A stretch of DNA of 24,444 bases from a virus (lineage: Duplodnaviria > Heunggongvirae > Uroviricota > Caudoviricetes). The position numbers and the translations under genes are program-made. The notes below the pieces were generated by a model. That model was not told the origin of the DNA. It made no database searches and worked only from the letters and a program-made list of their open reading frames with translations. The DNA lies in the IMG/VR virus record IMGVR_UViG_3300012275_000062. The stretch is one strand, 5' to 3'. This document shows positions 1,138 through 15,124 of this stretch, piece by piece (the stretch's first letter is position 1; every line of letters begins with the position of its first letter).

Positions 1138-2394
1138 TCATTCATTTTTAACTGCTTCATTTGACCCAGCTTCAAAACTTGATATTTTAAAATTAACAAG
1201 TTCTTTAATAGAATGGCAAATATTCATTAAATCATGTATCTCGAAATTATCACATTTTCTCAGAACATCATCATTAGTTGAGATATTAATTAAATTCATT
1301 ACGTCTTCGGCATTGAACTTTTCGTCATGCAAAACATTTTGGAATGTTGTTTGTATTACTTTGTAATAGCTATTAATATTTTCACTGTTTGAATGTGTAA
1401 GTTGATATAAATGTCTTATTTGTAGATATAATTCAAGCACTCTGTCTTTGAATAATTCTTCATCACTTTTAGTATTGTTAGAAAACTCATTCTCAAACTG
1501 GGATGTTAATTCTTCTTTTTCCTTCGGATCAATAGTCAGAGTCTCGGTTTTTTCAATTGCTTTTTTTAGTATTGGACTCAGTGTATTTGTAAGGCGAATT
1601 ACTTCATCAAGATCTTGTTTAGTAAAATCTCTATTATGAGCAACTTTGCATCTGAGTCGATATAAAATACTCCAATTTTTTATTATAGTGTCAGCATTTG
1701 CTTCGATGTTTGACTCAAAGAATTTTTCCCAGTTTGTTCTGGGAACGATTTTTTTCAATTCTGAGAATATATCAGCATTAATGTCTTTAAATTCAAGCGG
1801 GGTTAATTTTCGGATCAAATCTGTTATTTCAATCTCTCGGTAAGATTTGAATATAAAGTCAGAAAGTTCAATAAAGTCAACTTGATACATTAAATTATGT
1901 TCATTATATTCTGTGTTTTTTTCGGATTTTTTCAATGCTTCTGAAAATTCCTTCGGCACTGAATCTTTTGTCCAAGACAATCCAACGTTATGTATCATGA
2001 ATTTTGTTATTAATTTTCTCATTAAGTTTTCAATTTCATGGATTAATGGATAAGCCTGAATTGAGTAATATTTGCTTATATCATCCCAAATAATTTGAGT
2101 GCTACCTAAATTACTTTCGCTAGATATTTTTTTGAAGAGTCTGGTTAATCTTGAGAAAGTGATTAAATTATCTTCACTAACGTCGTTTAGTGTTAATTTT
2201 ACAGAGATAGTTTCTTTATTGCTTCCATATTCTGATATATCATATTTAAATGACTGTTCTTTGAATTTTAATTCTTTTGGTGAAAATATGACTTCCTCAC
2301 TGGCCTCAATTATTTTTTTATAGGCTGACGGAGAGCGTCCAAAGGAAGTATCTTTATTCACTATTAATAACATCTCGACTATACATTCATCCAT
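1138..2394 (-). CDS. AT-rich cargo protein, 418 aa, with an R-x4-H (HEPN-like) motif; candidate abortive-infection or defense effector
   Basis: Long ORF in a very AT-rich segment with Lys/Asn/Ile/Glu-rich codon usage unlike the backbone. Motif YRLRCKVAHNRDF (residues ~245-257, nt ~1636-1653) fits the HEPN R-x4-6-H signature. SD GAGGAG lies 7 nt upstream of the ATG at 2394. Co-oriented with cI and int. Confidence 0.7.
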   Translation of the reverse strand: MDECIVEMLLIVNKDTSFGRSPSAYKKIIEASEEVIFSPKELKFKEQSFKYDISEYGSNKETISVKLTLNDVSEDNLITFSRLTRLFKKISSESNLGSTQIIWDDISKYYSIQAYPLIHEIENLMRKLITKFMIHNVGLSWTKDSVPKEFSEALKKSEKNTEYNEHNLMYQVDFIELSDFIFKSYREIEITDLIRKLTPLEFKDINADIFSELKKIVPRTNWEKFFESNIEANADTIIKNWSILYRLRCKVAHNRDFTKQDLDEVIRLTNTLSPILKKAIEKTETLTIDPKEKEELTSQFENEFSNNTKSDEELFKDRVLELYLQIRHLYQLTHSNSENINSYYKVIQTTFQNVLHDEKFNAEDVMNLINISTNDDVLRKCDNFEIHDLMNICHSIKELVNFKISSFEAGSNEAVKNE

Positions 2395-2440: not shown

Positions 2441-3007
2441 TTATTTATATTCAAGACATGCCATCACGATTTTTGCGATCATTATTATATCTTCTAACGC
2501 GCATTCGAAAGGAGATATACCACCTTCCACATGAAGGCGCCTGCCAGGCAAGCGTGTAATTGTTCTCATTGATATTTCACCATCAATATTAACAATCCAT
2601 TTTCCATCACGGACATCATCATAATCAATATCACAAATGTATTTGGAACTATCAACAACAACAACCATCGGATTTTTTAGAGCTTTAGGTAGAAAATTTA
2701 CATCAAAAACATAAGACCCTTCAGGACAAAGTTCACCATCATAGAGAATTTTTAGCGGAAGTTCTTTGGTGTTTTCATTTTGTGAACCCTCTTTGATTCC
2801 GTAGCCATTAGTCAGCCAGCTCAATGACGTACCTGTCTCTAAGGCGCACTGAATAACCCATTCCGCAGGGAAGGAGTCGCGCATATAGCGTGTCGCCAAA
2901 GTACTCTTTGAAATCCCTAAATGGTCGCACAAAGCTTGTCTTGTCTTGAAGCCATAGGCTTCAACCATACGCTCTATGGCACCACGGCCGCCTTTTTCCA
3001 AATTCAT
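2441..3007 (-). CDS. cI: Immunity repressor CI (186-type), about 188 aa
   Basis: N-terminal HTH-like segment (GFKTRQALCDHLGISKSTLATRYMRD) plus a C-terminal domain; length and position match 186 CI rather than the 99-aa P2 C. Start taken at ATG 3007 (SD GGAG upstream); the ORF track starts at GTG 3013. Divergent from the apl/cII operon. Confidence 0.75.
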   Translation of the reverse strand: MNLEKGGRGAIERMVEAYGFKTRQALCDHLGISKSTLATRYMRDSFPAEWVIQCALETGTSLSWLTNGYGIKEGSQNENTKELPLKILYDGELCPEGSYVFDVNFLPKALKNPMVVVVDSSKYICDIDYDDVRDGKWIVNIDGEISMRTITRLPGRRLHVEGGISPFECALEDIIMIAKIVMACLEYK

Positions 3008-3031
3008 GGTCACTCCAGGTGAACTTTTATC

Positions 3032-3903: not shown

Positions 3904-4237
3904 ATGCTGACGAAAGAACCTTCATTTGCATCACTATTGGTGAGGCAAAGCCCGGCAATGCACTGCGGTCATGGCTGGATTATGGGGAAGGATGGCAAGC
4001 GCTGGCACCTGTGCCGTACTCAGAATGCGCTTCTGGATGAATTGTCTACAACCAAAAAGGGGAAATCATGGCGCAAGCTACAGAAGGTGTGTTTTACCAG
4101 TTCTTCCATAAGGGCGAAAAGTATTCAATTCATGAGGACGAGTTTGCAAGTTGTTATCCGTCTCTTTCGGGTGATGGTAGTTACTATTTTACGTTGCGAG
4201 ATGGGACATTCTTTCGGGGGGAACGGGTTCAGGAAGT
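3904..4237 (+). CDS. Hypothetical early protein (186 fil/dhr position); 3' end undetermined because the frame runs into the N-gap
   Basis: ATG 3904 just after the cII stop with SD GAGG. No stop codon before the gap at 4238. The downstream part of this frame looks non-protein-like, so the real gene is probably short. Confidence 0.3.
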
Positions 4238-4352
4238 NNNNNNNNNNNNNNNNNNNNNNNNNNNNNNNNNNNGAAAAGCACATCACCTCTTGAACAGTAT
4301 CGCCAACAAACTTATCGGTAACGCTCTATTAGCTCCTGAAGTTTGTAGGTGA
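4068..4352 (+). CDS. Hypothetical early protein, interrupted by the assembly gap 4238-4272
   Basis: ATG 4068 preceded by a strong SD (AAAAAGGGGAAATC). Protein-like N-terminus MAQATEGVFYQFFHKGEKYSIHEDEF... Length is unreliable because of the N-run. Confidence 0.45.
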   Translation: MAQATEGVFYQFFHKGEKYSIHEDEFASCYPSLSGDGSYYFTLRDGTFFRGERVQEXXXXXXXXXXXXXKAHHLLNSIANKLIGNALLAPEVCR

Positions 4353-4560
4353 ATTCCTGACGTTTGAGTGAGCCTGGCGGCAATTTGTTTAATTCTTCAC
4401 GAAGGATGTTTAAAAATGCTGACTGATTCGATGATTCTCCTCGTAGCACACTGTGTAGTAAGCCAGACAGCAGGATTTGTTGCATCTCAACATCCTCTCG
4501 CAGTCGCGCAATTTCATTTTCAAGCTGCTCGATCCGTTCCTTCTCAACCAGGTTCAACAT
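4312..4560 (-). CDS. Hypothetical small coiled-coil protein, about 82 aa, antisense to the early operon
   Basis: Minus-strand ORF. Start preferred at ATG 4560 (SD GAGGG 7 nt upstream) rather than the ORF-track start at 4590. Heptad-like translation (EQLENEIARLREDVEMQQILL). Confidence 0.45.
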   Translation of the reverse strand: MLNLVEKERIEQLENEIARLREDVEMQQILLSGLLHSVLRGESSNQSAFLNILREELNKLPPGSLKRQEFTYKLQELIERYR

Positions 4561-5282: not shown

Positions 5283-5509
5283 TGGCTGATTCAATGGACC
5301 TCGTGCAACAGCGCGTTGAAGAAGAACGTCAGCGCCATATCCAAACAGCTCGCAGCCGAAAGACTGGGGCTTCTTCTCTGGAGTGTGAGTGTTGCGGAAT
5401 CGTCATCCCGGAACAGCGCCGTGCTGCAGTGCCGGGCTGTGATCTCTGCGTCACCTGTAAGGAAATAGCAGAGCTGAAAGGGATGCACTACACCCGAGGT
5501 GCTTTGTGA
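5282..5509 (+). CDS. TraR/DksA-family C4 zinc-finger protein, 75 aa
   Basis: CxxC-N17-CxxC arrangement ([25 protein letters not shown]), typical of phage TraR-like zinc fingers. Coupled to the upstream ORF. Confidence 0.65.
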
Positions 5510-5528
5510 GCTTTGGAGTCTTCCAGTG

Positions 5529-7955
5529 ATGTCTGAGCTACTAAAAGATAAAGGCGGTCCGATTGTGACCGCCGTGGCCTTTCCATGGAATACCCCAAAA
5601 AAAGCGGTTAACCCGTATTTGGACCCGGCGGAATTTGCGCCTGAGTCTGCGCTTTCAAACCTCATCACTCTGTACGCTGCAGATAACGAGCAGGAGCATC
5701 TGCGCCGTGAGGCGCTGAGTGATGAGGTGTGGGAACGTTATTTCTTCAATGAATCCCGCGATCCTGTCCAGCGTGAAATAGAGCAGGATCGGCTGATTAG
5801 CCATGCCAGAATGGCCCGCGAGCAGCAGCGCGTTAATCCCGATTTGGTGATTATTGCCGATGTAAGCGCCATGCCTGCCCATATCAGCAAGCCTCTGTTA
5901 GAGCGGATTAAATACTTCAATAGCCTAGGCAGGGCTAAAGCTTATTCCCGTTATCTGCGCGAAACAATCAGGCCTTGTTTTGAGCGGCTGGAGCGAGTGC
6001 GTGACAGCCAGGTGTCTGCATCTTTCCGATTCATGGCGAGCCAGGACGGGCTGGAGGGATTGCTGGTACTTCCTGAAATGAATCAGGATCAGGTCAAGCG
6101 CCTTTCCACGCTGGTTGCGGCACATATGAGCATGTGTCTTGATGCGGCTTGCGGTGATCTGTTTGTCAGTGACGATGTTAAACCAGAAGAAATCCGCCAG
6201 GCGTGGGAAAGGGTTGCTGCAGAAGCCATGCGCCTTGAGGTCATTCCGCCTGCCTTTGAGAAGTTGCGCCGCAAAAAGCGCCGTCGCAAGCCAGTGCCTT
6301 ATGAACTGATCCCACCGTCGCTGGCGCGCATGCTGTGCGCGGACTGGTGGTATCGCAAATTGTGGCAGATGCGCTGCGAGTGGCGGGAGGAGCAGATGCG
6401 CGCCGTCTGTCTGGTCAACAAGAAAGCGTCCCCGTATGTCAGTTATGAAGCCGTGATACACAAACGCGAGCAGCGTCGCAAATCGTTGGAGTTCTTCCGC
6501 TCGCATGAGCTGGTCAATGAAGACGGCGACACGCTGGACATGGAAGATGTAGTGAACGCCAGCAACAGTAACCCGGCACACCGCCGTAATGAAATGATGA
6601 CCTGTGTTAAGGGGCTGGAACTGATAGCGGAAATGCGCGGAGACTGCGCGGTGTTCTATACCATCACCTGCCCGTCACGCTTCCACGCAACCCTCAACAA
6701 CGGCAGACCTAATCCGAAGTGGACCAGTGCCACTGTCCGGCAGAGCAGTGATTATCTGGTTGATACGTTCGCCGCTTTCCGCAAGGCCATGCACAAGGCC
6801 GGATTGCGCTGGTACGGCGTCCGCGTTGCAGAGCCGCACCATGACGGCACCGTGCACTGGCATCTTCTGTGCTTTATGCGCAAAAAAGACCGTCGTTCCA
6901 TCACCGCGCTGCTGCGTAAGTTCGCCATCCGTGAAGACCGCGAGGAACTGGGCACCAATACCGGCCCGCGCTTCAAGTCCGAGCTAATCAACCCGCGCAA
7001 GGGTACACCGACCAGCTACATCGCCAAATACATCAGTAAGAACATCGACGGGCGCGGGCTGGCTAAAGAAATCAGCAAAGAAACCGGCAGATCATTGCGT
7101 GACAGCGCCGAGCATGTCTGTGCCTGGGCGTCACTGCACCGTGTCCAGCAATTCCGTTTCTTTGGTATCCCGGGGCGTCAGGCATACCGTGAGCTGCGCT
7201 TGCTGGCTGGTCAGGCGGCGAGAGTGCAGGGCGAACGCAAAGCGGGTGCACCGGTACTGGATAATCCGCGTCTGGATGCGGTACTGGCAGCTGCAGATGC
7301 GGGTTGCTTTGCCACTTACATCATGAAGCAGGGCGGTGTACTGGTTCCCCGCAAACATCACCTTGTCCGCACGGCTTATGAGCTTAACGACGAACCGAGC
7401 GCTTACGGCGATCACGGTATCCGTATCTATGGCATCTGGTCCCCGATTATAGAGGGCAAGATTTGCACGCACGCGATGAAGTGNNNNNNNNNNAAGTGGA
7501 AAAAGGCCCGTAAGGCCGTTGACGTTCAGGAGGCGGCAGCCGACCAGGGCGCTTGCGCCCCTTGGACTCGTGGCAATAACTGTCCCCTTGCTGAAAATTT
7601 GAACCAGCAGGAGAAAGATAAATCAGCTGATGGGGACACCAGAACGGACATTACCTGCATGGATGACAAGGAGTTGCACGATTATCTGCACAGTTTGAGC
7701 AAAAAAGAGCGCCGGGAACTGGCTGCAAGGTTACGCCTGGTTAAGCCGAAACGGCGTAAAGACTACAAACAGCGAATTACAGATCATCAGCGACAACAGC
7801 TCGTCTATGAGCTGAATTCCAGAGGATTTGATGGTAGCGAGAAAGAGGTCGATTTACTCCTTCGCGGCGGCAGTATTCCGTCAGGAGCAGGCCTGCGTAT
7901 CTTCTATCGGAACCAGCGTTTGCAGGAAGATGACAAGTGGCGGAACCTGTATTAA
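5529..7955 (+). CDS. A: Replication initiation endonuclease A (P2 gpA family, rolling-circle HUH nuclease); contains an N-gap at 7484-7493
   Basis: HUH motif [12 protein letters not shown] (HWH at 6855-6863) and tandem catalytic tyrosines [12 protein letters not shown] (~7017-7040), both closely matching recalled P2 gpA. Start set at ATG 5529 ([12 protein letters not shown] upstream); the ORF track starts at GTG 5499. Confidence 0.85.
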
Positions 7956-8024
7956 TTACGCGGGTTAACAATTCGTGCTCTTAATAATACCAGGCATATC
8001 AGGCTGATGAACGTAAAAAAACGT

Positions 8025-8067
8025 TTTACATCAGTAAGATTATTATATACTGTAAATATAAACAGTG
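8025..8067 (+). promoter_or_regulatory. SOS-regulated promoter with a near-consensus LexA box
   Basis: TACTGTAAATATAAACAGTG (8048-8067) fits the CTGT-N8-ACAG LexA box and overlaps a -10-like TATACT (8046-8051). A -35-like TTTACA sits at 8025-8030. It is immediately upstream of the 62-aa gene. Confidence 0.55.
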
Positions 8068-8108
8068 GTTATGTATACAGTGTTGCTTGTGGTGTCATAG
8101 GAGGAAAG

Positions 8109-8297
8109 ATGCAGGACTATTTTTTGGAGTCTTTGAAGCTCCAGCGCATTGATTTTTTTCTTAAGCTTGTAGCGGCCAGTGAGTGTAGTGATGAAGAGAA
8201 GAGACTGGCTATCCAGTGGGTTTCTGAGCTGACTGACGAGTTGATGGCGAAAATTCGTAACTATGAATACAGCCGTACAATGGACGCTACCAGCTAG
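8109..8297 (+). CDS. SOS-controlled small protein, 62 aa; candidate Tum-like antirepressor
   Basis: ATG 8109 preceded by AGGAGG. It is the first gene downstream of the LexA box, in the position of the LexA-controlled tum operon of phage 186. Function is inferred from context only. Confidence 0.5.
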   Translation: MQDYFLESLKLQRIDFFLKLVAASECSDEEKRLAIQWVSELTDELMAKIRNYEYSRTMDATS

Positions 8298-8307
8298 GGG
8301 AAAACCT

Positions 8308-8537
8308 ATGCGCATTGAAACAATGATCGATAAAGAGCAGTAAATTAGCTAGGCGCTGTTAGAAGCCGTTGAATCCGAGCTTTACCGCAACCTGCAGCCT
8401 ATCTATCCAAAGACAGCAATCCGCATTCGTAAAGGTTCGGCAAACGGCGTTGAGCTGAGCGGCTTAAAACTTGATGAAGACAAAAGCGAGTGATGGAAAT
8501 CATGCAGCATGTTTGGGAAGATGAGAGCTGCTTTTAA
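8308..8537 (+). pseudogene. DinI-family gene remnant, disrupted by two in-frame stops and a frameshift
   Basis: MRIETMIDKEQ then TAA (8341) and TAG (8350), then ...AIRIRKGSANGVELSGLKLDEDKSE, then a frameshift to MEIMQHVWEDESCF. These pieces align in order with recalled E. coli DinI (MRIEVTIAK ... SVRYAAANNLSVIGATKEDKQRISEILQETWESADDWF). Confidence 0.45.
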
Positions 8538-8560
8538 ATATCGATTTAGGGGAAAATCTC

Positions 8561-8586
8561 AACCTCATGCAGTATCGCATGAGGTT
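8561..8586 (+). terminator. Hairpin downstream of the dinI remnant (possible terminator)
   Basis: Perfect 10-bp inverted repeat AACCTCATGC / GCATGAGGTT with a 6-nt loop, followed by a weak T-tract (CATTT). Confidence 0.3.
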
Positions 8587-8680
8587 CATTTAGGCGAAAT
8601 TTGTGGGAATTTTCTACAAGTTTATGAGCGAATAATTCATTTTTGATGTGTTAATTTCTTAACAATTTGGGCTTTAATTC

Positions 8681-8708
8681 TTGTAAAGCAAGACATAACG
8701 TTTATGAT
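8681..8708 (+). promoter_or_regulatory. Candidate sigma70 promoter of the two-gene cargo operon
   Basis: TTGTAA (8681-8686), 16-nt spacer, TATGAT (8703-8708), in an AT-rich intergenic region about 45 nt upstream of the ATG at 8754. Confidence 0.35.
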
Positions 8709-8753
8709 TGATAAATATAAAAAATCTGAATAGGCAGGAAAGGAGTTTAACTC

Positions 8754-9269
8754 ATGCCTGGGTTAGAAAATGCACAGCAAAATCAAGTTGATGAAATCGT
8801 TCCAGCAATGCAAATCGCATTGGTCGAAGAAGATATAGAACAACCCATCGCTGCCGAATACCTATACAGCCAGCATATAAGTGCGCTTGTGCCACAATGC
8901 CCTCCTGCCGAAGCGACAGAGTGCGATAGAGAATGCTGGCGTTTTACACTGAATCCTATAAGTCACAACTGCTTTTGGCCTCCAAAAAGAAGATCACCGC
9001 AGCGAATTGCTTCCGACGATGCGGAGGAGTGTTCTATGTGGGCGTTGTCTATGTATGAATCAGAGGCCCAGGCTACAAGAGCCTATACCATGTTAGCGAA
9101 GAAGATGAAAAATATCAGAAAAGCTATTGGTGATCACCTTGCTGTGGGTTCAGTAACCTGTAGTGATGGTAAATGTATGCCTGCTAGCAGAACCGGTCAC
9201 TTTGATTTTCATCCTTATGTGGATGCGGATTTCGTTAACGGGTTCCAAGTAATACGAGCATTACCATGA
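8754..9269 (+). CDS. Cargo gene 1 of a two-gene operon: 171-aa Cys-rich protein of unknown family
   Basis: Strong SD AGGAAAGGAG before ATG 8754. Seven Cys residues. Translation is protein-like but carries no motif I recognise. Stop overlaps the start of the next gene (ATGA at 9266-9269). Confidence 0.75.
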   Translation: MPGLENAQQNQVDEIVPAMQIALVEEDIEQPIAAEYLYSQHISALVPQCPPAEATECDRECWRFTLNPISHNCFWPPKRRSPQRIASDDAEECSMWALSMYESEAQATRAYTMLAKKMKNIRKAIGDHLAVGSVTCSDGKCMPASRTGHFDFHPYVDADFVNGFQVIRALP

Positions 9270-10357
9270 TAAAATTAGATGCTAGAAGAATAAATGCGTC
9301 AACTGTCGGAGATTATTCTTGGTACTCTGACCTCGTATATTTCGATGGTCCCCTAATTTGCTTGTTTAGAGGAAGCGGATATAAAGATGCTCTTTATGTC
9401 TGGCTTGATAATTCGGAGCGTGCCAATCGTTGGTGCTTGATTCCAGTATCAAGATCTACTTTGGACTCTTATCTTAACCAAAGAATGAGTTTAAGGGAGA
9501 TTATACAATCGAGCGAATATACATATATCTGCGATCATTTTGCGAAAACCGGAAGGAAGCACTACAACATTTTGCACGTTGATAGTTTTCCTGAGGAGTA
9601 TATGCCTGATGAAGATTCATATTTGTATGAAGAAATATGTACTGATGATGCATTGCTGTTGAAGCAGGAGCGCACCTCCAGTTATATGCTTGGATTAGAT
9701 AATCAGTTGTTTATAAATGATTTATCTGTAATACCAAAAATTTTCGAACAGCTCTATTCTTTCCATTACGGATTGGCTCATTTAGGACGGTTGTCGATTA
9801 GAAATACCATGTTGCGTCTGATGGGGAATTGGACGGGTGGAATATCAGCAGTAAATATATTTTCAGGGTTGAAAAATGTTATTCCTGTTTTGCATCGACC
9901 AGAGATTAGCTCTCTCCAATACAATTCACCGGGGCATATTGAGTTAAATTTACTTCCTGATTTGGCTCAAAGTGTTCAAGATGCATCTATTCGTGTGAAA
10001 AGTGAGCTAGTTTATGACCGTCTGGAGAAAATGTATAAAAATACATATGCATACTTCAAGGATAATGGGCTGTCAGGCTTTGATGAAGACGGCGGCATTG
10101 AAATTAGAAATATCGATAGTGATACCACCGGAAACCTACGTAAACGCGTAAGAATATTTTTTAGATGTTTGGGGTGGTCAAGTTATCAAGCTCAGTTTGA
10201 TCTGATCGGTGCCCATCCTCTACAACAATTACGTGCTGTGATGGCCTACTACAGGCGGCTCAAAATCTTGCGTGAATACATTGTCTCCGAGAAGCTTTTT
10301 GTTGGTCAGTCTCGGGTGTTACAGCAGCCACAAATTGCTCTGCCTCCTGAGGATTAG
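9266..10357 (+). CDS. Cargo gene 2 of a two-gene operon: 363-aa protein of unknown family
   Basis: Translationally coupled to gene 1. AT-richer than the backbone. No Walker A, HUH, HEPN or other signature found by eye. Confidence 0.8.
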   Translation: MIKLDARRINASTVGDYSWYSDLVYFDGPLICLFRGSGYKDALYVWLDNSERANRWCLIPVSRSTLDSYLNQRMSLREIIQSSEYTYICDHFAKTGRKHYNILHVDSFPEEYMPDEDSYLYEEICTDDALLLKQERTSSYMLGLDNQLFINDLSVIPKIFEQLYSFHYGLAHLGRLSIRNTMLRLMGNWTGGISAVNIFSGLKNVIPVLHRPEISSLQYNSPGHIELNLLPDLAQSVQDASIRVKSELVYDRLEKMYKNTYAYFKDNGLSGFDEDGGIEIRNIDSDTTGNLRKRVRIFFRCLGWSSYQAQFDLIGAHPLQQLRAVMAYYRRLKILREYIVSEKLFVGQSRVLQQPQIALPPED

Positions 10358-10413
10358 ATTCTGCGTTATGCTGCATGAATCCGCATGATCGTTTGAGGAT
10401 CGTTCTAGATGAG

Positions 10414-10437
10414 GCCCGTCAGCAATGGCGGGCTTTT
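10414..10437 (+). terminator. Intrinsic-terminator-like hairpin downstream of the two-gene operon
   Basis: GC-rich stem GCCCG (10414-10418) / CGGGC (10429-10433) followed by TTTT (10434-10437). It may instead be part of the cos-region structure. Confidence 0.3.
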
Positions 10438-10482
10438 GCTAATGTCATGCTGGCGCATGAAAACCACTACATAAAGCGGGCA

Positions 10483-10501
10483 GGCGTGGCGGGGATACGA
10501 G
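10483..10501. other. Putative cos (cohesive-end) site of the P2/186 family
   Basis: GGCGTGGCGGGGATACGAG: the first 13 nt match the 19-nt cohesive end I recall for 186 (GGCGTGGCGGGGAAAGCAT; P2 is GGCGAGGCGGGGAAAGCAC). It lies where cos is expected, between the right-end accessory region and Q. Confidence 0.35.
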
Positions 10502-10635
10502 CGCGCTCTGATATGAAAATCTGAACAAATAATTACAAAATGGTATCTTTTTGTTGCTATCATCATTTTTGATGGTAACTTAACCTTTTCAGTTTCTATA
10601 TTATAAAATTCTATCCAGAAGAAGGAATTTGTTTC

Positions 10636-12417
10636 ATGGCTGAACTATTACCGCAAACAACTTCTATACAAACTATTTATTCATGGTTTACTGAAGGTAA
10701 GATATTTGTTAATAGACGTTATCAACGAAAATTAGTTTGGACTGCAATAGAGAAACAAAAATTAATTGAATCCATTCAAAAAAAATATCCAATTCCTGCA
10801 GTTCTTCTCGCGGAAAGGGAAAATGATCCTGGCACATATGAAATAATTGATGGCCTACAAAGATTACATGCAATAATGTCTTTCATCGAAACAGGATATG
10901 AATCACTTGATGGAAAACGTTTTAATCTGGACGCTTTTCCCACAGCGAAAAATCGAGCGGATGAAGGTAAGTTTGTTGCAGTGAAAGCTGATAATCTTTT
11001 AAGTCAGCGTGAGGTTACTCAGTTATTGGATTATTCTCTTGCAATGTCCATTATGCGTAATGCGACTGAGAACGAAATAAATGATGTTTTTGATAGAATT
11101 AATACATACGGGCATAGACTTAGTGATCAAGAAAGGCGCCAGGCTGGTATACAAAATAAATTTTCAAATATGGTTAGGGATATTGCCTGTTCTATCAGGG
11201 GGGATGTATCTGACGACATATTGCTTTTAGAGCAAATGCCGTCTATTAGCATTGATTTGCCACTAACTAAACATGGTTACCAAATTCAGTCGGAAGAAGT
11301 ATTTTGGGTAAAACATGGGATCTTACGTTCAACAGACCTTCGTGACAGTATGGATGAGCAATGCATTGCAGATATAGCAGCTTGTATTGTTGGAGGTAAG
11401 TTAATAGATCGTTCCAAAGATGCGCTTGATCAGATTTATAATAATGAAGATGAAGAGTATAGTCGTATTAGCTCTGCTATTAATGTTTATGGTGAAGGAA
11501 AATTTGCAGAAGAGTTTAAATTCTGCATCCAGGAAATAACAAAAGTATGTAATAGTGACGGTGAAATTAAACTCAGGGATTTAATCTTTACTAAACGTAC
11601 TACAAATGCTTTCCCAGCCATATTTGCTGTGTTATTTATTGCTTTTCATGAATTACTCATTAAAGAAAATAAGAAGATTAATAATTATAAAGGTGTAAAA
11701 GACAATCTTAATAATATAGTCACTCGACTAGATACTAAAAGATCTGCTACTGGTGGGGAAGAGAGAAGAAAGAATATTAATTCTATCATTGGCTTGATTA
11801 AAGATAACTTTATTGATAGCGCCGATAGCAGTCATATCTATAATTCTCACAATACGGTGGATATTGAGGATATTTTACGAAGATCTGAAATAGAGCTTGC
11901 AAATTATGAACTGAAACAGGGTTTGTTGATGTTAGGCGGAGAGCGAACTATTGATGATGGCATTCATGAGAAAATATTCTCCACAATTTGTGCTATTGCT
12001 AACATCGGTAAAGGTAACAAGAACGGTGTAGTTGGTAAGTTATTGCTTGGTGTAACAGATAAACCAAGTGATACAAGTAGAGTAAAAGAGCTTGATGATA
12101 TAGATGCACATGTAGTTGGTGAGAGAAGTGTTGTTGGTGTTAAAAGAGAAGCTATTAAACTCGGCATATCAATGGAAGAATATTATAGACGTTTTTGCGA
12201 TGAGTTGAAAAAATCTGCTTTGAGTGAGCCTCTTAAATCACAAGTGGTGAGTTTGATTGACTATAATGACTTTTATGGTTATGGAGTTATAGTTATTACA
12301 ATTCCACTTCTAGCATCTTATTCTAGTTATGATGGGGATATTTATTATCGTGCTGGCGATAATACCGTAAAAGCAACAGTTATCGAAGCAGCAGATATTG
12401 CAACACGTTTTAAATGA
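10636..12417 (+). CDS. Cargo protein, 593 aa: N-terminal DUF262 (ParB/Srx-like) domain fused to a C-terminal Schlafen/AlbA_2-like domain; candidate single-gene anti-phage system
   Basis: DUF262 signatures NRRYQRKLVW (residues ~27-35, nt ~10714-10740) and IIDGLQRLHAI (~70-80, nt ~10843-10875), plus the downstream FDRINTYGHRLS block. C-terminal ELANYELKQ ... IFSTICAIANIGKGNKNGVVGKLLLGVTD (~418-475) resembles the AlbA_2 core. Very AT-rich. Own SD (GAAGGAA) and AT-rich upstream region. Confidence 0.85.
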   Translation: MAELLPQTTSIQTIYSWFTEGKIFVNRRYQRKLVWTAIEKQKLIESIQKKYPIPAVLLAERENDPGTYEIIDGLQRLHAIMSFIETGYESLDGKRFNLDAFPTAKNRADEGKFVAVKADNLLSQREVTQLLDYSLAMSIMRNATENEINDVFDRINTYGHRLSDQERRQAGIQNKFSNMVRDIACSIRGDVSDDILLLEQMPSISIDLPLTKHGYQIQSEEVFWVKHGILRSTDLRDSMDEQCIADIAACIVGGKLIDRSKDALDQIYNNEDEEYSRISSAINVYGEGKFAEEFKFCIQEITKVCNSDGEIKLRDLIFTKRTTNAFPAIFAVLFIAFHELLIKENKKINNYKGVKDNLNNIVTRLDTKRSATGGEERRKNINSIIGLIKDNFIDSADSSHIYNSHNTVDIEDILRRSEIELANYELKQGLLMLGGERTIDDGIHEKIFSTICAIANIGKGNKNGVVGKLLLGVTDKPSDTSRVKELDDIDAHVVGERSVVGVKREAIKLGISMEEYYRRFCDELKKSALSEPLKSQVVSLIDYNDFYGYGVIVITIPLLASYSSYDGDIYYRAGDNTVKATVIEAADIATRFK

Positions 12418-12420
12418 AAG

Positions 12421-12442
12421 AACGCCTGCTCAGGCAGGCGTT
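12421..12442. terminator. Hairpin between the convergent 593-aa gene and Q (likely bidirectional terminator)
   Basis: Perfect 9-bp inverted repeat AACGCCTGC / GCAGGCGTT with a 4-nt loop, starting 4 nt after the 593-aa gene stop. On the minus strand it is followed by TTCTTTCATTT, i.e. downstream of Q. Confidence 0.45.
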
Positions 12443-12457
12443 AATTATAAACAGGAA

Positions 12458-13435
12458 CTACAAAATATATTTATTAAATGTAATTATATTTTCATCCAGC
12501 CAACAATTAAGCGCTTGCATCAATTTTTGCAAAGGTAAAAGCTCATTCCGCACAAATACCTTACTAGCTTTCTCTACATCCCCAAACCCCCCGACATTGC
12601 TAGGCATAATCCCCATCATTTGCGGCGGTACGCGGTGCGCCGCCATCATGTCGTCCCGGCTCACGTTCTTGATATTCAGAAACTCATCCTTCGCCGCGAC
12701 TTCTGACAGAGGAATGATCTGAAGCCCATCCTTTTTGCCGTTAGGCGAGTACATAAACAGGTTGCGGAAGTTACCCGGTCCTTTGGCGCTTTTCATTGCG
12801 TTGCGGAGGTTGTTCACATCCTCCTGGTTTTGCGCGGCATCGGTCATGTACATGATGAAGCCTGCATGACTGCCGTTAATGTAATACTTCCGGCGGAACA
12901 GCGTGGCGGACTCGTTGAGCAGAGCGGATGGAATAGCAGAAAGATAGCCAGGCAGGCCGTAGATCTCCNNNNNNNNNNTTGCCATACCGTATTGCACAAA
13001 CCAGTAGGTATCCAGGTCTAATCCGCGTCGAGTGTATTTTGCCAGGGCAGGTTCAAGGGCGATAACTTCACCGAAGCGGTTCGTGCGTTTCTCCAGGTAG
13101 GCATTACCAAATACCAGATAGTCCTGCACAAAACGTGAAAAAGCCTGCTGGCTGAGCAACGGGTGAGGGATATAGGTGCTGGTCAGAATGTTGCACTTTA
13201 CTGCAATCGGTGAGCTGTGGTGTACGGCGGCGCGGAAGGTTCGCGCCAGGCCGTCGAAACTCACTGGTGGCTCATACCAACGGTCCATCTGTACGCATTC
13301 CACATAGTCCAGCAGTTCGCGGCGGTCCAGAACAGGAACGGGATCACCGAAGCTGAATGCTTCGGCTGAAGTCTGGTTTTTATGCTGGATCTGTTTCGTC
13401 GCCGCAGCGCGGTTCTTCTTACTCTTTCCCATCAA
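12458..13435 (-). CDS. Q: Portal protein (P2 gpQ family); contains N-gap 12969-12978
   Basis: Position and orientation match P2 Q, divergent from O/N and adjacent to P. Translation is consistent with recalled gpQ. Length is uncertain because of the gap. Confidence 0.85.
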   Translation of the reverse strand: MMGKSKKNRAAATKQIQHKNQTSAEAFSFGDPVPVLDRRELLDYVECVQMDRWYEPPVSFDGLARTFRAAVHHSSPIAVKCNILTSTYIPHPLLSQQAFSRFVQDYLVFGNAYLEKRTNRFGEVIALEPALAKYTRRGLDLDTYWFVQYGMAXXXXEIYGLPGYLSAIPSALLNESATLFRRKYYINGSHAGFIMYMTDAAQNQEDVNNLRNAMKSAKGPGNFRNLFMYSPNGKKDGLQIIPLSEVAAKDEFLNIKNVSRDDMMAAHRVPPQMMGIMPSNVGGFGDVEKASKVFVRNELLPLQKLMQALNCWLDENIITFNKYIL

Positions 13436-15124
13436 AAAATCTCCACAATATTGCTGGTATTGGCGGACTCGCCCTGCAGTGGTTCGTTAAACAGTGCGTG
13501 CATTGTTGCCCAGGCCAGATCGGCATGGCTGGCTTCTTCGCTGCGGCTGGCTTCATAGGTCGGGCGGTTGCCGCTGGCGGTGGTGGCGCGACGGATTGCC
13601 ATGAATGACTGCGCAATGTCGGTGTGCCCGGCGTCAAACTCAAGACGGCGGTGGCTGATAATGTCGTAGGCCTTGAGTACCAGGGCGTTTTTAACGTTGG
13701 GGTTGTAGACAAACTCCCGGACGGCAGGAAAAAACGCTTTCACGTTCTCGTAAACCCCGTGACCAACGCCGGTTGAGTCGATGCCGATATAGGTCACGTT
13801 GTACTGTTCGGTCAGTTTTTTGATGGCGTCAGCATGGGCGCGAAAGTCCATTCCGCGCCACTGGTGACGCTCAAGAATGCGCCGGGTCATAACCGATCCA
13901 CACTTCGCGCCAGCCAAACGGGCGCAGGGCCAGTGCATGAAAGTCGGTCCAGACTTCCCAGCTGTCCACCATGCACGCCTGCAATTCGCTGAGCGGGAAC
14001 ACGGACGCGAGATCGTCCACGAACTCGCACATCAGCAAGTTCTGGTATTCGTCAGGGCTGTACTCCATGCGCAACTGGTCAAGGTCGAACAGGTTACAGC
14101 CGCCTCGCACCGCATCTTCCACGGTGACTATCTGGCGGTATTGCCCGTCTGCGCACAGCAGGCCGGGGGCCAGATTGCTGTGGGACAGGTCGATGTCCAC
14201 CTTATCGGCTCTGTTGCGCCCACGGTTGAACAGCGCACCGGACCAGAACGGATAAGCACTGTGTGTCAGACTGGATGGCGTGGAAAAATAGGTCTGTCGC
14301 CATTTCTTGTGAATAGCCATACCGGAAGCCACTTTGCGCAGCTCCTGGAATTTCGGTATCCAGAAATATTCATCCAGATACAGGTTGCCGTGGTAACTCT
14401 GGGCCGTGCGGGCATTGGTGCCGAGGAAGTACAGCGTGGCCCCGTTAGGAAGCACCATCGGATCGCCTTTCAGCTCCACCTCCACTTCTTTGGCGAAGTC
14501 GATGATGTACTGCTTAAAGACGTGGGCCTGTGCCTTGCTGGCGGAAAGGAAAATCTGGTTACGCCCGGTCAGCAGGGCGTCAATCAGGGCTTCACGGGCA
14601 AAATAGAAGGTCGCGCCGATCTGGCGTGACTTCAGCAGGTTGCGGATGCGGTTGGTTTTTCCGGCTTCCCACCAGTGGCGCTGGTAGTTGAACATGGAGG
14701 AATGGAAGATTTCTTCCAGCTTCTCAATCTGTTCATCGGTGAAAACGTTCTTTTCCGGCTGACGGCGCGGGCCTTTGTTGCGGTTGGCGACGTTAGGGTT
14801 TAAGTCGGCTTCGTTGCCGCCATTGTTAAACTTGCCGATCCGCGCATGGCGCTCCGACTGGCGCGCCAGCAGGTCAATCTCTTTGAAATCTTTCCCTTCT
14901 TTGTGCTCCTTCATAATGAGCTGGCAGTAGCGTGCGGCGGTGGTGAGCTGCATCTGATCCAGCGGCCCATAGTCACCCCACTTGTCGCGTTTTTTCCAGC
15001 TGTGAACGGTTGCAACTTTCTCGCCCAGCATTTCAGCAATGCGGGCTACGCGGTATCCCTGAAAGTACAGCAGCATGGCCTGCCGACGGGGATCGAGATC
15101 TGCGGGTGTCAGTGTGGTGTTCAT
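13432..15124 (-). pseudogene. P: Terminase large (ATPase) subunit, P2 gpP family, split by a frameshift in 13871-13938
   Basis: N-terminal 417-aa ORF (13871-15124) and C-terminal 168-aa ORF (13432-13938) are in different frames and overlap. Together they are about the length of P2 gpP (~590 aa). Either real inactivation or an indel error in a draft assembly. Confidence 0.75.

Follow-up and report, generated by a model that had tools for sequence, protein, structure and literature searches.

The window (by which we mean the whole 24,444-nucleotide stretch analyzed here) is an Escherichia coli prophage of the P2 family and the 186 type. Besides a 190-amino-acid CI repressor, it encodes a CII that Pfam places in the CP76 family and an ORF containing the gpA replication endonuclease. 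Immediately beyond that ORF lie a LexA box, a 62-codon gene that we refer to as tumA, a broken DinI-like frame that we refer to as tumB, and a block of defense genes (Table 1). The order gpA, tumA, dinI is also found in phage Cartapus, Fels-2, PSP3, 186, E. coli HS, and one Klebsiella phage, and in the window the small gene sits just downstream of gene A in an element whose repressor is a 186-type CI rather than a P2 C-type protein. Three runs of N (4238-4272; 7484-7493, comprising 10 N within the gpA ORF; and 12969-12978) are masked positions that break up ORFs, gpA and the portal gene among them, and we regard them as data artifacts.

Table 1. Coordinates of the switch region and its surroundings, in window positions.
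Feature	Position	Strand	Basis or remarks
186-type CI immunity repressor, presumed target of TumA	2441..3013	-	Pfam Phage_CI_repr (E 1e-30) and Phage_CI_C (E 9e-25)
ORF containing gpA replication endonuclease	5499..7955	+	153 nt between its end and the ATG of tumA
Putative p95-like promoter	8025..8053	+	-35 TTTACA (8025-8030), 17-bp spacer, -10 TACTGT (8048-8053); by analogy
LexA (SOS) box TACTGTAAATATAAACAGTG	8048-8067	.	Consensus match and conservation
Degenerate second LexA-like box (putative)	8063..8082	.	5-nt overlap with the first box; right half-site ATACAGT (8075-8081) conserved
Shine-Dalgarno sequence AGGAGG of tumA	8099..8104	+	Sequence; same in relatives; within published DuoHS tum-deletion primers
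tumA, 62-aa putative antirepressor	8109..8297	+	Orthology to DuoHS tum and Fels-2 STM2728; profile homology to the N-terminal half of 186 Tum
tumB, DinI-like pseudogene	8308..8537	+	TAA (8341-8343), TAG (8350-8352), 1-nt deletion in the A-run 8482-8485, altered last codons
Perfect 10-bp hairpin after tumB	8561..8586	+	Lacks a T-run; could terminate weakly or partially at best
PD-T4-10 A and B, toxin-antitoxin-type anti-phage defense cargo	8754..10357	+	PADLOC PD-T4-10_A (E 1e-75) and PD-T4-10_B (E 8e-172); context, not part of the switch

The LexA box agrees with the consensus TACTGTATATATATACAGTA at 17 of 20 positions (three mismatches) and keeps the CTGT-N8-ACAG palindrome of the LexA regulon. 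When the 24.4-kb window was scanned, this was the sole site with three or fewer mismatches, and none of 100 shuffled controls contained a LexA-box match. An alignment of the locus revealed the same box sequence in DuoHS (the prophage of E. coli HS), Fels-2, and Cartapus. The box lies 41 bp 5' of the 62-aa ORF, and its first hexamer, TACTGT, doubles as the candidate -10 element. The promoter of the SOS operon in phage 186, p95, is annotated in GenBank with the same layout (TTCACA, 18 bp, TACTGT, with the LexA site beginning at the -10), and the promoter region of the window is conserved in DuoHS, Fels-2, Cartapus, and one Enterobacter relative. A generic sigma-70 promoter scan did not call the stretch, because TACTGT agrees with TATAAT at only three of six positions. 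Since that scan was silent and TACTGT is a poor -10 by consensus, we assigned the promoter by analogy and infer a p95-like promoter with the geometry of 186 p95, which would place the LexA box over the core promoter of a tumA-type gene. Binding of LexA at 8048-8067, and derepression of this site upon DNA damage, are predicted from the sequence.

Tandem or alternative LexA binding is putative at the degenerate second box that overlaps the first. The Enterobacter counterpart of this second box (record L012, positions 3947-3966) is nearer to the consensus than the window's own copy. Another CTGT-N8-ACAG site, CACTGTTCAAACATACAGTT on the minus strand, occurs at 1085-1104. It is bounded on one side by the end of a 418-aa ORF (1138-2394, minus strand) and on the other by a terminator (hairpin plus T-run) that shortly precedes the integrase start (1053). 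This site could be a chance occurrence or a second SOS site.

An earlier, sequence-only reading of this region had proposed a near-consensus LexA box overlapping a -10-like hexamer, followed directly by a 62-aa ORF with an AGGAGG Shine-Dalgarno sequence, and both features hold up. The tumA frame is intact from its ATG at 8109 through 62 codons to the stop. We also considered a 96-aa ORF starting from an ATG at 8007 and rejected it as noncoding; it crosses the promoter, and its frame is not conserved, because the A-run at 8016-8022 varies by 1 to 2 nt among relatives and so breaks the frame. Comparison of TumA with its relatives revealed about 12 synonymous and 8 to 9 nonsynonymous codon differences, the latter mostly in the C-terminal tail, and residues 1 to 31 are the same across relatives. 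An AlphaFold2 model (pLDDT 88) predicts a two-helix hairpin (helices 2-23 and 28-61), in which Cys26, located at the turn, is conserved and Trp37 is invariant. Searching the PDB with this model in Foldseek returned generic helical hairpins only (E 0.5 or worse), and a profile search of PDB sequences with the TumA family gave no match and hence no solved relative. An Rfam search of positions 7800-8900 found nothing.

Relatives of TumA form a compact set of small Enterobacterales proteins, nearly all about 55 to 75 aa long. A word-indexed search yielded 486 matches, and an all-against-all search of a representative set of 1.84 billion proteins yielded 67 cluster representatives. None of these 67 was a fused, Tum-length protein; they were short, standalone relatives only. 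In their source records, nearly all TumA relatives are unnamed or listed as "hypothetical protein."

The relative that carries most of the argument is ECHS_RS04495 of DuoHS, which is also 62 aa long and is 87% identical to TumA. The gene removed from DuoHS in the Phollow study is given there as "tum (locus tag ECHS_RS04495)," and its deletion and a lexA(Ind-) allele each abolished mitomycin-induced lysis and virion formation (PMC12055606). The deletion primers NHR24 (reverse complement GTGGTGTCATAGGAGGAAAGATGTGA) and NHR28 (…ATGTGAGGTGACTTTTATGCGCATTG) fit the flanks of exactly this ORF, which identifies ECHS_RS04495 as the gene deleted as tum, and the published primers match the window sequence as well. 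The window gene is, by this 87% identity, an ortholog of a genetically validated tum. TumA is likewise close to STM2728 of Fels-2 (85.5% identity).

Its relationship to 186 Tum itself is far more distant. Alignment of the two proteins had been proposed as a check on the sequence-only reading, and the outcome depended on the method: pairwise BLASTP produced no alignment, whereas profile methods did. A family HMM built from 33 members scored 34 to 35 bits on 186 Tum (residues 6 to 48) and 37 bits on a Yersinia phage protein annotated "tum protein," compared to next-best scores of no more than 6 bits in a test set of 934 sequences (decoy ORFs plus PSP3 TumA). Comparison of the TumA family with 186 Tum by hhalign gave a probability of 94% and an E value of 9e-8 over Tum residues 3 to 52. 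PSP3 TumA was barely visible to the same family, at E 2 with the profile and 7.5% probability in hhalign. PHROGs 698, 8554, and 1993, all labeled "unknown function," are cross-linked via the N-terminal half of 186 Tum, and together they appear to make up the TumA antirepressor family. These comparisons show that the 62-aa protein is homologous to residues ∼3 to 52 of 186 Tum, a homology visible by profile methods only.

The published genetics of these phages place such a small gene in context. In 186, antirepressor and DinI-like parts are fused in Tum, while in Fels-2 and PSP3 tum is split in two and the upstream gene is the antirepressor (Lemire et al. 2011, PMC3121763). The GenBank record of PSP3 describes tumA as "similar to 5' end 186 tum; UV induction of prophage" and tumB as "similar to dinI and 3' end of 186 tum." The sequence-only reading had described a LexA-repressed Tum operon in 186 that includes a DinI-like gene; the operon stands, but the DinI-like part in 186 is the C-terminal half of Tum itself, and the split form is that of PSP3 and Fels-2. 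We concluded that the region is very probably a 186-like prophage's SOS operon, in the split form of PSP3, Fels-2, and DuoHS, with a LexA-controlled TumA antirepressor and a dead tumB. The proposal of a 186-style SOS induction circuit is borne out by the LexA box and promoter, the 186-type CI together with CII, and the orthology to DuoHS; the identity to DuoHS tum and the profile homology to 186 Tum agree with the suggestion that the 62-aa product is a short Tum-like antirepressor.

Such a circuit would work as follows. In an undamaged cell, host LexA would sit on its box over the -10 and keep the operon off. DNA damage would activate RecA, LexA would cleave itself, the promoter would fire, and TumA would be made. 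According to Shearwin 1998, as cited in PMC3121763, 186 Tum binds CI and prevents it from binding its operators. TumA would likewise bind the window's 186-type CI and stop operator binding, releasing the early lytic promoter while CI stays uncleaved, and the prophage would run on TumA alone, tumB being a pseudogene. We infer binding between TumA and CI in this prophage by analogy. That the two match is only assumed, because the window's CI (35% identical to 186 CI), although 68% identical to DuoHS CI overall and the same over residues 3 to 62, is only about 50% identical to it in the C-terminal domain.

Whether this switch leads to phage is another matter. The prophage had been called probably UV or mitomycin inducible, and this claim stands in part: SOS probably does derepress the prophage, yet it is doubtful that infectious phage would be made. 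In gpP, the gene for the terminase ATPase (13435-15124, minus strand), there is a 74-nt out-of-frame deletion near 13858, as measured against the copies in E. coli DG341-1 and E. coli W, which are otherwise 99.5% identical. If this deletion is real, derepression would yield no infectious phage because the terminase is frameshifted, and the prophage has probably lost the ability to package its DNA. It is about an even call, in our estimation, that the switch is intact in a defective prophage, so that SOS derepresses lytic genes (maybe with excision, replication, and lysis) in the manner of an SOS-triggered suicide or expression module that makes no infectious particles. The tumB pseudogene, which indicates relaxed selection in the element, fits this account as the gpP deletion does, and a sister prophage in strain 13C1079T has lost its head genes altogether. 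Yet CI, CII, int, gpA, and tumA are all intact, the gpP deletion is found in the window sequence only and could be an assembly artifact, and the window shows only 24 kb of the element.

A different objection concerns the 62-aa protein, which might be an SOS-induced accessory (modulating RecA or LexA, or excluding superinfecting phages) instead of the prophage's antirepressor. Databases give it no function: Pfam has no family for it (we dismissed a sub-threshold match to PPP1R21_C), PADLOC returned nothing for it, its RefSeq name is "hypothetical protein," and PHROGs lists it as of unknown function. Its similarity to 186 Tum is remote. Against this, the ortholog in DuoHS is needed for induction of that prophage, gene order and LexA box are both conserved relative to the tum genes of 186, PSP3, and Fels-2, and the profile homology spans the N-terminal half of 186 Tum. 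We therefore consider the accessory role very improbable and retain TumA as the antirepressor.

The second gene of the operon has fared differently from the first. The tumB frame extends from an ATG at 8308 to a TAA at 8535-8537, and the two internal stops fall at codons 12 (TAA) and 15 (TAG); we judged its lesions against the intact 77-codon genes of Cartapus, Klebsiella phage ST15-OXA48phi14.1, Fels-2, PSP3, and E. coli HS. Once repaired, the translation matches Pfam DinI (PF06183, E 2e-19) and PHROG 189, is near-identical to Cartapus DinI in its center, and shares 39% identity with residues 71 to 144 of 186 Tum. The repaired frame thus carries a DinI domain, but the window has no intact ORF of about 77 to 81 aa at this position, and in RefSeq it bears the label "DinI-like family protein; frameshifted; internal stop." The dead-tumB region is present in 13 complete E. 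coli genomes, which amount to a few distinct isolates after eight same-length chicken-isolate records are merged. When species-representative genomes were scanned for the exact pattern of this pseudogene allele, none matched. The TAA and the frameshift are both present in the copy of strain 13C1079T, which has CAG in place of the window's TAG and TGG in place of the window's TGC. Because the TAA and the frameshift occur there without the TAG, we read the decay of tumB as stepwise. A DinI-family frame broken by two stops and a frameshift had been noticed in the sequence-only reading, and the recurrence of the lesions in independent complete genomes confirms it. That the gene is really intact and the lesions are sequencing or assembly errors is an idea to which we give next to no credence: the frameshift does sit in an A-run, a typical error site, but the TAA and frameshift recur in the 13 complete genomes (a few distinct isolates), which argues against sequencing error for the stops, one isolate lacks the TAG, RefSeq lists the frame as a pseudogene, and a W-to-C change has occurred near the C terminus.

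Loss of tumB is not confined to this lineage. P2-like prophages of Enterobacter (records L011-L015; e.g., L012, positions 4199-4432) have a dinI frame that other stops interrupt at codons 19 and 43; the adjacent tumA is intact and 94% identical, the LexA box is good, and the cargo is different (with a weak match to Peptidase_M78). On the evidence of these different stops, we take the Enterobacter lineage to have lost tumB independently. In Salmonella, non-polar dinI deletions leave the induction of Gifsy prophages unaffected (PMC3121763). We suggest that loss of tumB is tolerated and the gene dispensable, since the Gifsy deletions are without effect, tumA is intact with a conserved core, and the Enterobacter prophages lost tumB on their own.

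The window itself is a mosaic. Likeness to other P2-like phages stops in the last DinI codons, where WLH* becomes WF* or CF*. The interval between gpA and gpQ in P2-like phages is a known defense hotspot (PMC9122126, PMC9519451), and here its cargo (8754-12722) consists of the PD-T4-10 A and B genes, then a 593-aa GmrSD_N/NsnA-like protein, along with a 102-aa ORF for which we found no family match. PD-T4-10 is a validated abortive-infection system of the toxin-antitoxin type (PMC9519451). The cassette is present in 13 of 5,426 complete E. coli genomes, and because dead dinI lies immediately upstream in 13 of 13, the tumB pseudogene and the cassette travel as one module. Decay of the DinI homolog had been taken as a sign of rearrangement at this junction; this is partly right, as homology does end in the last DinI codons, at the edge of the hotspot, but the frame was inactivated by point mutations and a homopolymer slip, which are not breakpoints. 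Direct repeats of 12 nt, ATTTAGGGGAAA and ATTTAGGCGAAA (8544-8599), lie on either side of the hairpin after tumB, which may act as a weak terminator or may be a scar left by a small insertion. The interval between int and cI contains the 418-aa ORF mentioned above, which has a weak PADLOC match to PDC-M34B (E 4e-7). The sister prophage of strain DG341-1 has a SNIPE-associated protein in its place, and because this prophage carries another gene there, we count the int-cI interval as a second variable cargo site.

Terminator prediction gave no intrinsic terminator on the plus strand between tumA and the cargo. With no clear terminator ahead of the co-oriented genes, read-through into the hotspot is possible. 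We note also that tumA was kept while tumB decayed independently in two settings, the E. coli lineage linked to PD-T4-10 and the Enterobacter lineage with other cargo. It is conceivable, though we think it rather unlikely, that the LexA-controlled transcript reads into the hotspot genes, that defense cargo such as the PD-T4-10 pair is partly SOS regulated, and that loss of tumB was selected rather than neutral.

Much of this is known biology. The split tumA/tumB architecture has already been described for PSP3 and Fels-2, the tumB pseudogene is already flagged in RefSeq, and our finding leaves current understanding unchanged. What it adds is an annotation gap and a recurrent loss: the 62-aa family is unnamed in RefSeq, PHROGs, and Pfam even though published genetics identify it as tum, and tumB has been lost more than once. 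Spreading the tum name through this family would improve calls of SOS-inducible P2-family prophages. For this prophage, the prediction is that DNA damage turns on lytic genes through LexA and a small antirepressor and not through cleavage of the repressor, a point that bears on prophage activity provoked by antibiotics in E. coli. With its dead tumB and broken terminase, the element further exemplifies prophage decay around a defense hotspot.

Several known systems resemble parts of this locus. E. coli DinI is an SOS protein that binds RecA filaments, and the repaired tumB is a clear member of its family, although the window's copy is a pseudogene. The LexA-controlled dinI-gfoA/gftA operons of the Salmonella prophages Gifsy-1, -2, and -3 also pair a DinI homolog with a small antirepressor of a noncleavable repressor (PMC3121763). 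However, dinI comes first in those operons, reversing the order, the antirepressors and repressors are unrelated in sequence to those discussed here, and the prophages are lambdoid rather than members of the P2 family.

In 186, the 146-aa Tum is encoded by the p95 SOS operon, with a LexA box over the promoter -10 as in the window. Its N-terminal ∼50 residues are homologous to the 62-aa protein (identity only about 18%), and its C-terminal ∼76 residues correspond to the window's dead DinI frame. The two halves are fused in one polypeptide with internal starts in 186, whereas the window has two separate frames. The target of 186 Tum is a 186-type CI, a repressor that the window carries too. The 186 operon runs on into orf97, where the window has the PD-T4-10 cassette instead, and p95 reading into orf97 offers a parallel for possible read-through into the defense cargo.

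Closer in layout are PSP3 (tumA/tumB) and Fels-2 (STM2728/STM2726.1), in which a small antirepressor gene and then a DinI homolog follow gpA under a LexA box, as they do here, with the difference that tumB is intact in both and dead in the window. The 60-aa TumA of PSP3 belongs to another subfamily (PHROG 1993) and is linked to the window's TumA only through 186 Tum. Relative to DuoHS, the window differs in the TumA C-terminal tail, the CI C-terminal domain, and the downstream cargo; moreover, DuoHS has an intact 77-aa DinI-like gene (ECHS_RS04500) and an intact terminase, both of which are broken in the window. DuoHS lies next to rcdA, as does the sister prophage of strain DG341-1. DuoHS nonetheless shares with the window its promoter, LexA box, ribosome-binding site, and position after gpA, and both prophages encode a 186-type CI.
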